64,000 nucleotides of DNA from Bacteroidota bacterium (GCA_019695345.1 JAIBAE010000005.1:9186-73185), one strand, 5' to 3'; shown: positions 2,761 to 63,126, counted from the first letter of the stretch. Numbers and translations: made by a program. Notes: generated from the letters alone by a model not told the origin.

Positions 2761-2832
2761 TTCTGCTACCGCAAGACCGCACGGTACCTTGCATTCCAGC
2801 CTGCCATTACTTTGCGGGATGGAACAATCTAC
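2761..2832. repeat. Family A element, degenerate left half (terminal motif plus internal TTGCGGGATGGAACAATC motif).
   Basis: TTCTGCTACCGCAAGACCGCACGGTACC resembles the reverse terminal motif TTTGCTA(T/C)CGC..GACGGCACC. The internal motif matches TTGCGGGATAGAACAATCC of the copy at 60641-60810. Confidence 0.4.
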
Positions 2833-4070
2833 TAATGATACACCAGAACTTTATGACTATGTGGGATGTTGTTTTCAACATACCGAACAACATAAAAGCC
2901 ATTGGGAAATTGCGAGCAATCAATACTTGTTTCATCGTTTGAGCTTGTTTGTTGATGTATTGTTTCTCCCAATTCATTTACGAAGACTATCGGCGTGTTC
3001 TGAGTTGCTTTAATATTCAATATATTGCTTACCGGATTAGGGAAAATAGAGTAAGTGTAAGTATTTATTTTATCAATAACACTCGTGACATATTCATCGT
3101 ACTTCAATACTACAATACGATACTTGTCATGAGAATTGAATCCTAAAGCATAACAATTTCCGTTTTTTGAGCAAATAACTTTCCGAATGATGACTGATGT
3201 AGTTGAATCAAAATCACTTTCCCAATTAATATTCCAGGCGAAGCCTCCATTTAGTGTTTTTAATACTTTGGAATTGCATTCCTTAAACCCTACCATACTA
3301 TTTTTCATTGCCATACTCTCGGATTGGCAACCAGAGTAACCAGTAACTACTTGCCAAGTTTTACCATAGTCTAATGAATTAATATTTCCATCATGAGTAC
3401 AACAAATTATTGTGTCGCCAAATACCTGAACCGTATAACTGATGATAGGTGGAGTAACAATTGTGTTCCACAAATTTCCATTATCAACTGTATGAAGAAA
3501 TCTACCCTTCGATCCTGAGTACCAAGAACCATCTGTATTTAAAAGCAAATAATTAGGGCGTAAACTGTCAATGATTTTTTCATTCCATGTTTTACCGTCA
3601 TCAGTTGAAATTTTTAGAAATCCTGCCCCACGTCCTAGAATAATACCCCCTATTCCAACAGTAGTAGAATCCTTACCGGATAAAACATTAATGTAAAATT
3701 TACCTGATGTGTCGGTAAAAAGCGTATCCCAACTCTGTCCGCCATTTATTGTTTTTAATAATAGCGAGTATTTGATATTGTTAAATGTACTTTGCAGAAC
3801 AACATATCCTTTAGTAGGAGTTACAAAATGAACTTTTAATAGAGCATCTTCGTTGTTAAAATTGTGTAATTGTAACCAAGACTTCCCTTCGTCTACTGAA
3901 CGTAATAATAGACCTGATTCAGTAGTTAAAAAAAGAGTTGTATCGTTCACAGTCTGAAAGTCATAAGGTAATCCATAATAATCAATTTGTGAGGTAGCCT
4001 TCCATGTTTGGGAATTGGAAGTATTACATATTAGTATAAAAAGTAACATTTGTACTATGTAGTGTTTCAT
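2832..4070 (-). CDS. Secreted BNR/Asp-box repeat protein (Ycf48-like beta-propeller) with T9SS C-terminal sorting domain.
   Basis: Six SxDxGxTW-type Asp-box repeats (SVDEGKSW, TINGGQSW, STDDGKTW, TVDNGNLW, SLDYGKTW, TLNGGFAW). Signal peptide. C-terminus ...PNGFYVVRYVENNIPHSHKVLVYH resembles the Por/T9SS type-A CTD. Confidence 0.7.
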   Translation of the reverse strand: MKHYIVQMLLFILICNTSNSQTWKATSQIDYYGLPYDFQTVNDTTLFLTTESGLLLRSVDEGKSWLQLHNFNNEDALLKVHFVTPTKGYVVLQSTFNNIKYSLLLKTINGGQSWDTLFTDTSGKFYINVLSGKDSTTVGIGGIILGRGAGFLKISTDDGKTWNEKIIDSLRPNYLLLNTDGSWYSGSKGRFLHTVDNGNLWNTIVTPPIISYTVQVFGDTIICCTHDGNINSLDYGKTWQVVTGYSGCQSESMAMKNSMVGFKECNSKVLKTLNGGFAWNINWESDFDSTTSVIIRKVICSKNGNCYALGFNSHDKYRIVVLKYDEYVTSVIDKINTYTYSIFPNPVSNILNIKATQNTPIVFVNELGETIHQQTSSNDETSIDCSQFPNGFYVVRYVENNIPHSHKVLVYH

Positions 4071-4149
4071 AGTGACACCTATCAGTTTTTTTAACTCCGT
4101 GAGCTAACATACCACAAAATAGCATTTTATTATTTCATACACGATGTAG

Positions 4150-4238
4150 GCTTGGGCAAAGCTGAGATTCTTTCCTGCAACGTGAGATTGTGCTATGCAC
4201 ATCGTTTGGTGCAGTCCCGCGATAGCAAAAAAAAATGG
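4150..4238. repeat. Family A element, right half (internal CTTTCCTGCAACG motif plus terminal GGTGCAGTCCCGCGATAGCAAAAAAAAA).
   Basis: Terminal motif matches family consensus GGTGCCGTCNGGCGATAGCAAAA. Its A-run is the T-tract of the adjacent minus-strand terminator. Confidence 0.5.
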
Positions 4239-4262
4239 ACTACACTTGTTAGTATAGTCCAT
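4226..4262 (-). terminator. Intrinsic terminator of the minus-strand lipoprotein gene 4305-6626.
   Basis: Hairpin ATGGACTA-cacttgttagta-TAGTCCAT; on the minus strand it is followed by TTTTTTTTT. Confidence 0.6.
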
Positions 4263-4304
4263 TTGTGTGAACACGTGGGGGATCAATCCACTGAACGTTG
4301 TTTA

Positions 4305-60848: not shown

Positions 60849-60871
60849 ATAGTGATTGTAGACAGATTATC

Positions 60872-62500
60872 TTAGTAATCCATTCCACCACCGTGCATGT
60901 GCGGCGCCGCAGGTTTTTCTGGTTCAGGTTTTTCAACGATTGTAGCTTCTGTTGTTAACAACAAGCTGGAAACCGAAGCTGCGTTTTCCAAAGCAACACG
61001 TGATACCTTTGTTGGGTCGATAACACCTGCTTCAAACAAGTCTTCGTATTTCTCGTTGTACGCGTTGAATCCAAATGCGCCTGTTCCTTCTTTGATTTTG
61101 TTAGCAATAACCGATGCTTCCAAACCAGCATTGGTAACAATCTGACGGATTGGTTCTTCAACTGCACGACGGATAATACCGATACCGGTATCTTGGTCGT
61201 GGTTCTCACCTTTTAAATTATCTAATGCGGAAACGCAACGCAAGTACGCAACGCCACCACCAGGTACAATACCTTCTTCTACAGCTGCACGTGTTGCGTG
61301 CAATGCATCTTCAACGCGAGCTTTTTTCTCTTTCATTTCAACTTCTGTTGCTGCACCAATTTTTAACACTGCAACACCACCACTTAATTTAGCCAGACGC
61401 TCTTGTAATTTTTCGCGGTCGTAATCGCTTGATGTTTTTTCGATTTGTGCTTTGATTTCGTTGATGCGTTTTTTGATTTCTTCGCTGGAACCACTACCTT
61501 CAACAATAGTTGTGTTGTCTTTGTCGATTGTAACCTTTTTCGCTGTTCCAAGCATATCCAAACCAGCTGAATCCAAACGGAAACCTTTTTCTTCGCTAAT
61601 AACAACGCCACCGGTTAAGATTGCGATATCTTCTAACATTGCTTTGCGGCGGTCGCCAAAGCCCGGAGCTTTAACAGCAGCAATGCGTAATGTTCCACGA
61701 AGTTTGTTTACAACTAATGTTGCAAGAGCTTCGCCTTCTAAATCTTCGGCAATAATTAACAACGGACGGCCACTTTGTGCAGCTTTTTCCAAGATTGGAA
61801 GAATGTCTTTAATTGCACTGATTTTTTTATCGTGAATTAAAAGGAATGGGTTTTCTAATGCAGCTTCCATTGTATCCGGGTCGGTTACAAAGTACGGTGA
61901 TAAATAACCGCGGTCGAACTGCATTCCTTCTACAACTTCCATTGTAGTTTCGGTACCTTTGTTTTCTTCAACGGTGATAACGCCATCTTTACCAACTTTA
62001 TCCATAGCATCGGCAATTAAGTTACCAATGGTGGTATCGTTGTTTGCAGAGATTGTACCTACTTGCGCAATTTCTTTTTTGCCTGATACAGGACGTGATA
62101 TTGATTTTAATTCTGCTGTGATTTTAGAAACAGCTAAATCGATACCGCGCTTAACATCCATTGGGTTTGCACCCGATGTTACTATTTTTAGACCTTCAGT
62201 AACAATTGCTTGTGCAAGAACGGTAGCTGTTGTTGTACCATCGCCTGCGATATCGCTGGTTTTGGAAGCAACTTCGCGAACCATTGAAGCACCGAGGTTT
62301 TCGATTGGGTCTTCCAATTCAATTTCTTTAGCAACCGATACACCGTCTTTTGTAACGGTAGGTGCACCGAATTTTTTATCAATAATTACGTTACGACCTT
62401 TGGGTCCTAAGGTAACTTTTACAGCATTTGCAAGTTGGTCAACACCACGTTTTAACGAAGCGCGCGCATCAACATCAAATGTTATAATTTTTGCTGCCAT
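60872..62500 (-). CDS. groL: Chaperonin GroEL.
   Basis: [13 protein letters not shown]... canonical; C-terminal GGM-type tail (HMHGGGMDY). Confidence 0.98.
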
Positions 62501-62555
62501 AAAACTATACTCCTGAAAATTTTAATAAATCGTTATTGAATTAATATTGCGTTTA

Positions 62556-62843
62556 TTAGCTGATTACTGCAAAGATGTCGTTCTCACGCATGATGAGTAA
62601 ATCCTCGCCGTCAACGCTAACTTCTGTTCCGGAATATTTACCATAAAGAACTTTGTCGCCTACTTTAACCTGCAGTGCAGTTACTTTACCATCTTCATTC
62701 ACTTTGCCGTTACCAACAGCTAAAATCTCCCCTTGCATAGGTTTTTCTTTTGCTGTATCCGGTATAATAATTCCACCTTTGGTGGTTTCTTCCGGTTTAG
62801 CCGGACGTACGATTACACGGTCGTGTAAAGGTGTTAAGTTCAT
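62556..62843 (-). CDS. groS: Co-chaperonin GroES.
   Basis: [35 protein letters not shown]... canonical. Start moved to the internal Met (95 aa). Confidence 0.97.
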
Positions 62844-62947
62844 AGTATTTCTCCAAAAAGTGTAGTTGAAAATAATATAGTGCACAAAAATAATTAGCAG
62901 TCCCCGTTGACGAGTGCTAATTTTTCTTATTGTTATATATATTAAAA

Positions 62948-63126
62948 AAATTTGCTACCGCAGACGGCACCGAACGTCCCCCAAAAAAATATTCACGCTG
63001 TGCCAGGTAAAACCTTGCACAACATATCACTGTTGACTCGGATTTGAAACTGAAGCGTCTATCCGGGTATATAATGGGTTTTATTAAAGCTAAGGTTATA
63101 TCCCGCTTGGCGTTAGCAAATGATGG
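62948..63126. repeat. Family A element, complete copy upstream of groES.
   Basis: Left AAATTTGCTACCGCAGACGGCACCGAACG; internal CTGTGCCAGGTAAAACC; right TCCCGCTTGGCGTTAGCAAATGATGG (degenerate). Confidence 0.55.

Follow-up and report, generated by a model that had tools for sequence, protein, structure and literature searches.

The window analysed here is a stretch of 64,000 nucleotides from a Bacteroidota bacterium (GCA_019695345.1, JAIBAE010000005.1:9186-73185), whose source organism is a Candidatus Kapabacteria (Kapaibacterium) metagenome-assembled genome (MAG) and whose proteins are annotated as Bacteroidota, Ignavibacteria or Kapabacteria. Its genes are ordinary chromosomal ones and include groES-groEL with the controlling inverted repeat of chaperone expression (CIRCE), the gene for phosphoenolpyruvate carboxykinase (PEPCK), sucD-ndk, accA, polysaccharide genes and genes for proteins sorted by the type IX secretion system. 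Between these genes lies a family of short, non-coding, repeated elements, referred to here as family A, which had been pointed out in an earlier note on the same DNA and is the subject of this analysis.

A high-copy family of intergenic units

When all copies are read inward, starting at the outer end and proceeding to the centre of the intergenic region, the repeating object proves to be a unit of ~70 nt. A covariance model (R1) built from 22 units recovers all 22 and three degenerate ones, which gives 25 units at 17 loci of the window (E-values 1e-18 to 7e-5). Sixteen of the 25 are arranged as eight inward-facing pairs, or complete elements, and the remaining nine are solo units, with a density of ~1 unit per 2.5 kb and ~1 locus per 4 kb. 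None of the 25 falls in a coding region, as judged from an open reading frame (ORF) map and from the genes annotated with Pfam. The reading covered ~74 kb of the source genome, consisting of the window and the next 10 kb (L037; sequences used for comparison are denoted by L and a number), where four further units were found, also intergenic. On the left side of the window, a look-up of gene 2832..4070 gave no exact recorded product. Such recurrence is not expected by chance: two terminus patterns, allowing up to three mismatches, gave 4 and 8 matches against 0 expected (none in 100 shuffles), and a pattern joining the outer and inner motifs gave 8 against 0.

R1 recovers every locus named in the earlier note, whose statement that all copies are intergenic is also borne out. 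Its inverted terminal repeats are real: the eight complete elements of the window, and two more in L037, terminate in imperfect inverted repeats of 22-25 bp, TTTTGCTAnCGC..GCACC and the complement of this sequence. The coordinates that it listed for eight complete copies are right, although it counted them as seven; likewise, its range of 2761-63126 holds the loci that it placed there but stops short of the full extent of the family, as an additional solo unit lies at 593-663.

Structure of the unit

Each unit is made of two conserved blocks separated by a loop, or spacer, of ~30 nt and variable sequence. The outer block reads TTTTGCTAnCGC-(3-4 nt)-CsGCACC; the inner block reads TGCsGGAgAGAAC, with a purine-rich tail (GGAGAGAAC). 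On the inward strand the loop is poor in G (A.35, C.28, T.26, G.11). RNAalifold and explicit pair counting concur in assigning two small helices to the unit. The first one is a mini-hairpin in the outer block, GC-TATC-GC, with 2-4 bp across variants and 3 bp in the consensus structure; in three copies its stem is longer (GGGC-TGCC-GCCC, GGGC-TTCC-GCCC and GCGC-TTCC-GCGC). The second helix comprises 5 bp, spans ~35 nt and joins the blocks across the loop, CsGCA in the outer block facing TGCsG in the inner one, so that these segments would pair whenever the DNA or its transcript becomes single-stranded.

The second helix covaries. In 35 distinct sequences, its second pair (22:64) is CG in 16, GC in 15, UA in 2 and UG in 1, and is never unpaired. 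The helix columns (21-25:61-65 of alignment A4) are 92% paired, and three of the pairs present changes on both sides, double changes being rarer in the two other varying pairs than in 22:64. The covariation score of the helix is 0.19, compared with 0.06 ± 0.02 for shuffles (0 of 500 reach 0.19) and at most 0.09 for slid controls. The covariation that the earlier note had proposed looking for is therefore present, in a 5-bp helix within each arm, and covariation by itself cannot tell RNA from single-stranded DNA.

Other features of the unit were considered and discarded. A third hairpin after GGAGAGAAC is not claimed, as individual folds disagree. The loops do not behave as guides or spacers, since neither matches nor complementarity to them occur elsewhere in the window beyond the level of shuffles, and the GGAG that resembles a Shine-Dalgarno sequence is not followed by a consistent start codon that would indicate small ORFs.

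Architecture of complete elements

A complete element measures ~175 bp and runs from an A arm through a centre motif with the consensus ACCGTTTATCGTGA to a B arm. The A arm has a TAAC loop and a short linker, and the B arm a TATC or TACC loop and a GAC linker; the two are homologous but distinct, as diverged inverted copies of one ~70-nt module. Nine complete elements (eight from the window and one from the sister species) yield a single full-length consensus when the TAAC-loop arm is set to the left, and exactly one TAAC-loop arm is present in nine of ten complete elements, including the two copies just outside the window. Together, these two facts give the complete element a polarity. No ORF of at least 100 amino acids is needed to explain complete elements.

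This arrangement differs from the long imperfect palindrome described in the earlier note, as the spacers of paired arms are not complementary to each other, covarying pairing occurs only inside each arm and the centre is directional. One long hairpin was also evaluated as the selected structure; it shows only a modest gain over shuffles (z -1.9 to -3.0) and was rejected, as the positions of covariation within an arm are usually those at which its partner arm differs from it.

Genomic context and orientation

The elements occupy convergent, tandem and divergent gene spacers. Their A-to-B polarity follows the plus strand in four cases and the minus strand in six, and runs either way relative to the neighbouring genes, which supports the earlier observation that orientation is not fixed. 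Six outer ends lie 0-8 nt past a stop codon, five in the window and one in L025 immediately follow the T-run of an intrinsic terminator hairpin, and the remaining kind of site is 30-130 nt upstream of start codons. This placement indicates that the elements fill the dispensable part of intergenic regions. Two complete elements just right of the window (L037, 15090-15265 and 18922-19096) lie inside the engB-purE and infA-rpmJ junctions and must be co-transcribed with genes that include those for ribosomal proteins; the element accordingly does not terminate transcription strongly, at any rate in the A-to-B orientation that both sites share.

A promoter was rejected as a general role after comparing the ends with the sigma-70, sigma-54, extracytoplasmic function (ECF) and Bacteroidetes-type (TAnnTTTG) consensus sequences: in the groES copy alone, TAGCAA stands where a -35 box would be expected, and relatives keep the same promoter without an element. 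The earlier argument against a promoter thus holds, both from the random orientation and from the orthologous sites that lack the element in relatives.

In the same stretch of L037, the rpsK-rpoA spacer (17740-17882) measures 142 nt, compared with 44 nt in L022, and holds an isolated TGCGGGACAAGTAACC, which resembles the inner block of family A, together with a GTAACCG..CGGTTAC hairpin. This spacer may be the relic of a family A element.

Distribution among strains and relatives

Assemblies of the same species (97-100% nucleotide identity) contain all the elements that they cover, with neither site nor orientation changed, and the density of single-nucleotide polymorphisms in the units is about that in genes. 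Collinear alignments at this identity run through the elements without inversion (L001-L004, L017-L019, L037 and L038).

These alignments bear on the idea that family A consists of double-stranded DNA sites for a site-specific recombinase or a nucleoid protein, either as invertons (inverted repeat-promoter-inverted repeat) or as Xer/dif-like module boundaries. Intergenic segments of 170-235 bp bounded by inverted repeats of 22-25 bp fit such sites, several of them adjoin surface or polysaccharide genes (for instance 25098-25280 and 28716-28893), and invertons are likewise intergenic segments of ~200 bp bounded by inverted repeats, found in the same wider lineage, Bacteroidota. Nevertheless, no flipped orientation is seen in 4-6 independent assemblies covering five elements, the nine solo units are unable to invert, and many copies reside in convergent spacers or operons, where a switchable promoter has no role. 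Moreover, in protein half-sites one would not expect the blocks of an arm to covary, no invertase or other recombinase gene was found in the 74 kb, and one locus per ~4 kb is far denser than in known invertons. Recombinase sites of this sort are thus very improbable. The terminus of the solo unit at 593-663, GGTGCGCAT, may resemble the XerC arm of E. coli dif, which would speak in their favour.

Orthologous copies were found in a sister species (L025/L026; GroEL 96% identical in amino acids, groESL 85% in nucleotides), as a complete element upstream of groES and as a solo unit past the terminator of groEL. Identity between orthologous sequences amounts to 65-76% in the end blocks, 77% in the groES promoter with CIRCE, and 23-29% in the loops, which is the random level. 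The helix contains a compensatory change, CGGG:CCCG here being CGGC:GCCG in L025.

More distant Kapabacteria-like relatives (L020-L024 and L027-L036; ~225 kb, of which ~80 kb were searched with filters off) are separated by GroEL identities of at most 94%, PEPCK identities of at most 90%, or S49 peptidase identities of 36-53%. No convincing match appears in these ~225 kb, where scores peak at 13.5 bits under default filters and at 15.8 bits without filtering, while true units of the window reach at least 23.8 bits with R1. A search of metagenome contigs with the S49 peptidase returned distant relatives only (36-53% identity), without a copy in any of them. At several orthologous sites the empty state can be seen directly. 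The spacer downstream of the NUDIX gene measures 117 bp with a unit here and 75 bp without one in L020; infA and rpmJ are 277 bp apart here, with a complete element between them, and 26-30 bp apart in L021 and L022; engB-purE measures 208 bp with a complete element, whereas the two genes overlap in relatives; and upstream of groES the relatives have the promoter and CIRCE but no element. In all, empty orthologous sites occur in L020, L021, L022, L024 and L036, and only between species or genera. The test of presence and absence raised in the earlier note therefore has a split outcome, with filled and empty sites between species and no polymorphism within the species.

Target-site duplications, which the earlier note had also suggested looking for, were not found, even where the empty state is known: neither the flanks of all complete copies nor the NUDIX, infA-rpmJ and engB-purE sites revealed a consistent direct repeat. 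Short duplications may be hidden by decay in old copies.

Rfam holds no match to family A at gathering thresholds and only two unrelated weak matches at E below 5, on which basis known RNAs (ribozymes, riboswitches and others) were rejected. Searches of plasmid and phage sequences gave no match either, and searches of the literature for Kapabacteria repeats, for repetitive extragenic palindrome (REP) doublets forming hairpins (REPINs) and REP-associated tyrosine transposases (RAYTs) in Bacteroidetes, and for the motif strings retrieved nothing relevant. The earlier note had recognised no described element, and these searches agree.

Two contigs end at or near elements. The short-read MAG contig L017 (JAEUSN010000744.1) ends 45 nt into the unit 46740-46810, and that of L035, a relative in the PEPCK region, stops about where the element would begin, which hints that the repeats break assemblies. 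Among the matches listed in a pattern scan of a genome collection, there were chance matches in GC-rich genomes and a repeat of Maribacter sp. 2210JD10-5, which have no bearing on the distribution. The latter (L006, L010, L011 and L014-L016) consists of identical copies of GTACTTTTGTTGCACTGCTAACGCAGCTACCGCACC.. that recur on one contig at intervals of ~2 kb, without the inner block of family A; they probably represent the end of an insertion sequence or a tandem unit.

Origin and nature of the family

We consider family A, with a probability of roughly 0.55, to be a lineage-specific family of non-autonomous repeats derived from a mobile element, similar to miniature inverted-repeat transposable elements (MITEs) or to bacterial interspersed mosaic elements (BIMEs), and now largely static. 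The high copy number, the narrow lineage, the insertion relative to relatives even in essential operons, the random orientation and the two-ended consensus all point to inserted DNA rather than to an ancestral regulatory module. Most likely, it is a previously undescribed family of a known kind, the bacterial intergenic repeated elements, with an unusual arm architecture. Of the MITE or REPIN-like character that the earlier note had proposed, the insertion pattern, the inverted ends and the empty sites stand; target-site duplications, polymorphism within the species and, in the 74 kb read, a transposase were not found.

According to this proposal, the element would have spread by insertion into AT-rich intergenic DNA, typically just past stop codons, beside terminator T-runs, upstream of promoters and even inside operons. 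The spread would date to the common ancestor of this species and its sister species, would have reached a density of ~1 unit per 2.5 kb, and would have left an element that is now largely immobile. The loops would since have drifted to randomness, and the end blocks and helix may have been kept by a trans-acting transposase or recombinase that recognises the folded single strand, or by use in the host. That no two loops are alike and that the species shows no polymorphism indicate an old family, and since the end blocks and helix outlast a divergence that randomised the loops, a continuing constraint is required.

The closest known kinds are MITEs and BIME/REPIN-type repeats. Among the former, the Correia elements (Correia repeat enclosed elements, CREE) of Neisseria have TA as target-site duplication. 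Family A shares with them a length of 100-250 bp, the lack of coding capacity, imperfect terminal inverted repeats of ~22-25 bp, what are probably hundreds of intergenic copies in either orientation, a conserved central motif, the co-transcription of some copies, and filled versus empty sites between related genomes. It differs in having no target-site duplication and no known parent insertion sequence with the same ends, in that its copies are far more diverged from one another, and in the covarying helix inside each arm.

With BIMEs and REPINs, family A shares two non-identical unit types placed head-to-head around a motif-bearing linker (as with Y and Z REPs), a very high density, an extragenic location, the conservation of structure rather than of the whole sequence, the lack of target-site duplications, and a long-term retention that suggests domestication. 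A more specific version of this likeness would make the units REPs or REPINs proper, that is, single-stranded-DNA hairpin substrates of a RAYT (a Y1 HUH transposase) encoded elsewhere in the genome. The high copy number, the extragenic units mostly in inverted pairs, a covarying structure that requires single strands and the missing target-site duplication, as in Y1 transposition, would agree with it. In a published description, REPs are palindromes of 20-40 bp with a GTAG or CGTC tag, those of the GTAG type have an associated RAYT, and REPs are found mainly downstream of genes (PMC3733652). The two tags of these super-families do occur in family A, CGTC within GGTGCCGTC of B-type ends and GTAG in three ends (GCGGTAGCA), but A-type ends contain neither of them, and where a tag is present its place with respect to the hairpin is not that of REPs. 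The tags are thus consistent neither in presence nor in placement. Furthermore, the unit of ~70 nt has a hairpin of 2-4 bp, a large unpaired loop and a long-range helix of 5 bp instead of a palindrome of 20-40 bp, several elements lie between divergent genes, including promoter regions, unlike the reported distribution of REPs (PMC3733652), no RAYT was seen in the 74 kb, and the elements have no strand bias, the GC skew of the window keeping one sign overall. REPs in the strict sense are therefore improbable.

The core sites of integron attC, R'' and R' (RYYYAAC and GTTRRRY), bound an imperfect palindrome at the 3' ends of cassettes. They were rejected as a model, since the inner block of family A, GAGAGAAC (complement GTTCTCTC), carries purines at positions that must be pyrimidines in the core, and the copies are not tied to the 3' ends of genes.

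Several observations weigh against a mobile origin as the full account of family A. Neither presence/absence nor inversion polymorphism was seen in the species, of which 4-6 assemblies were compared, target-site duplications were not found, and no transposase, RAYT or recombinase is encoded among the ~60 annotated genes of the 74 kb. No two copies have a similar loop, and hence there is no sign of recent transposition. The support for the helix comes mainly from one highly variable base pair (22:64), whose CG and GC states are partly linked to the type of arm, A or B, even if each state is found in both types (states crossing the arm types include 53762-53833, 51411-51482 and L025:2900-2969), so that the independent events are fewer than the raw counts. 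A covarying helix within the arm is not expected for a classical DDE-type element with terminal inverted repeats, and the long-term conservation of the blocks at orthologous sites suggests a selection beyond what mobility alone explains.

An alternative is a structured RNA module used by the host and acting on the inward-reading strand, whose present significance would lie mainly at the RNA level. It could possibly serve in 3'-untranslated or intercistronic regions for stability or processing, or as a protein-binding or transcript-boundary element, and its multiplicity would result from exaptation, as proposed for REPs, or from the de novo spread of a useful module. The covarying helix and the stem variants of the mini-hairpin (GC, GGGC, GCGC) agree with it, as do the G-poor loop of the inward strand, which would keep a large loop unstructured, the G-U wobbles, which favour that strand by 4 to 1, and the blocks, which are conserved between orthologs, the loops being randomised. 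In addition, seven units located 0-25 nt past a stop codon without an intervening terminator must be transcribed, as must the two complete elements inside essential operons. By contrast, roughly half the units point away from the start of a gene or run antisense to the genes on both sides, several sit after an intrinsic terminator, complete elements occur in both orientations relative to transcription, and units fold no better than shuffles on either strand (mean z ~ -0.8). No Rfam family corresponds to the module even at E below 5, its loops have no complementarity elsewhere in the window, and the family is absent from close relatives with the same operons. Neither a fixed place in host transcripts nor a promoter or terminator of its own was found, as nothing is conserved outside the unit and units face either way. 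Of the small structured RNA that the earlier note had offered as an alternative, the covariation is confirmed, and an Rfam match and a fixed relation to a promoter or terminator are absent. On balance, an RNA module is possible, though clearly less probable than a mobile-element origin.

A mobile-element origin and a later host use are compatible, and the readings overlap. Continuing host use has been argued for REPs. That the 70-nt module of family A is a functional structure maintained by the host, in RNA or single-stranded DNA, and not merely decaying mobile DNA, is an unlikely proposition; one possible role would be to bind a lineage-specific protein that processes polycistronic RNAs or marks the boundaries of transcripts or operons.

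Loci and other features

The loci of family A in the window, with their R1 scores and surroundings, are compiled in Table 1.

Table 1. Family A loci of the window. Scores of paired arms are given in the order of the arms.
Feature	Position	Strand or arms	Score (bits)	Remarks
Solo unit	593..663	-	51.2	TGAC loop; helix GCGCA:TGCGC; ~100 nt upstream of OmpA-like gene 764..2662
Solo unit, convergent genes	2759..2830	+	56.3	Outer end follows terminator hairpin of 764..2662; inner end abuts stop of 2832..4070
Solo unit	4162..4232	-	60.4	Helix CTGCA:TGCAG; begins in terminator T-run of gene 4305..6626; ~95 nt upstream of start of 2832..4070
Complete element	8548..8741	A arm 8548-8619 (+), B arm 8667-8741 (-)	63.4, 36.6	B arm starts 4 nt past stop of 8743..13662; terminator-like hairpin within its loop
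Complete element	13754..13948	Degenerate A arm 13754-13824 (+), TACC-loop arm 13878-13948 (-)	58.7, 53.6	
Complete element	25098..25280	B arm 25098-25169 (+), A arm 25211-25280 (-)	59.3, 65.4	Centre hairpin ACGATAAAC..GTTTATCGT
Complete element	28716..28893	TATC-loop arm 28716-28787 (+), weak TAAC-loop arm 28821-28893 (-)	46.4, 23.8	Flanked by divergent polysaccharide export gene and sucD
Solo unit	31151..31225	-	45.7	Spacer of NUDIX gene and next gene; orthologous site empty in L020
Solo unit	34898..34972	+	47.1	Variant first hairpin GGGC-TGCC-GCCC; 6 nt past stop of 33446..34894; bidirectional terminator then follows
Solo unit	38070..38142	-	50.8	Variant first hairpin GGGC-TTCC-GCCC; starts at stop codon of 38142..38906
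Solo A-type unit	43970..44040	+	59.9	Helix CTGC:GCAG; ccmB/amino-acid permease spacer; immediately right of second-repeat-family copy 43894-43960
Complete element, convergent genes	46740..46921	B arm 46740-46810 (+), A arm 46851-46921 (-)	59.6, 54.9	B arm 7 nt past stop of AA-kinase gene; terminator hairpin after A arm
Complete element	51411..51643	Arms 51411-51482 (+), 51572-51643 (-)	57.8, 51.2	Longer centre; divergent PEPCK/FMN-dehydrogenase-like genes; orthologous spacer of L036 is 150 bp, no copy
Solo B-type unit	53762..53833	-	59.9	Inner end abuts stop of polyprenyl synthase gene; outer end follows terminator T-run of 53897..54391 (terminator 53864-53836, tail TTTTATTTGC)
Solo unit	55304..55375	+	53.2	Variant first hairpin GCGC-TTCC-GCGC; helix CGGCA:TGCCG
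Complete element	60641..60807	A arm 60641-60710 (+), B arm 60737-60807 (-)	65.0, 57.5	Centre CCGTTTATCGTAGAACTACGAT; convergent S49 peptidase/groEL; A arm 3 nt past stop, B arm after groEL terminator; L025 ortholog is a solo unit
Complete element	62948..63123	TACC-loop arm 62948-63018 (+), A arm 63051-63123 (-)	52.9, 32.7	A arm helix CGGG:CCCG; upstream of groES promoter and CIRCE; ortholog in L025, none in L020, L021, L022, L024

A second family of intergenic repeats, unrelated in sequence to family A, is present at 21304-21352, 42568-42601, 43894-43960, 49554-49620 and 58038-58089, with the core GACCGGGTTGCGGCGC..TTGCTwCGGCA..TGAGGG. Its copy downstream of PEPCK abuts a weak, sub-threshold Rfam match to Atu_C4 at 49631-49688. 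In the 90%-identity PEPCK relative (L035), the region downstream of this gene (1835-2506) is rich in purines over ~670 bp, contains no called gene and is not similar to any part of the window.

Upstream of groES, the CIRCE operator TTAGCACTCGTCAACGGGGACTGCTAA (window 62891-62917) and a conserved -10-like ACAATAAG are common to all the relatives examined, and groES has a clear GGAG Shine-Dalgarno sequence. Bacteroidetes-type boxes (TAnnTTTG, for example CGTATTTTTGC) occur at ~28965-28985 and 63185-63205. They precede the start codons of sucD and gene 63213..63743 by 12-15 nt, a distance that suggests short leaders at both genes; a related GATATTTG box lies ~60 nt upstream of PEPCK. Finally, a tandem duplication (42848-42963/42989-43104; period of 141 bp, 80% identity) is located inside or next to ORF 42776..43117, whose 113 amino acids have no Pfam match.

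Significance

If the window is representative, family A would by extrapolation make up a few percent of the genome, with units in the order of a thousand, and at that copy number would be among the denser known intergenic repeat families. In scale, it is not a new kind of system. To our knowledge, only metagenomes have yielded Kapabacteria, and the literature searches found no account of such repeats in this lineage. The R1 model and the motif explain oversized intergenic regions, including the insertions at infA-rpmJ and engB-purE, and the family marks places where gene callers and predictors of promoters or terminators may be misled. With its compensated helix, randomised loops and distinct ends, it provides a clean case for how old repeats keep a structural constraint, and it is a candidate substrate for a transposase or an RNA-binding protein. 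If the module were indeed maintained by the host, purifying selection would have acted at more than 1000 sites since before two Kapabacteria species split, and family A would be a cis element of a new class, distributed genome-wide in a lineage that has not been cultured.

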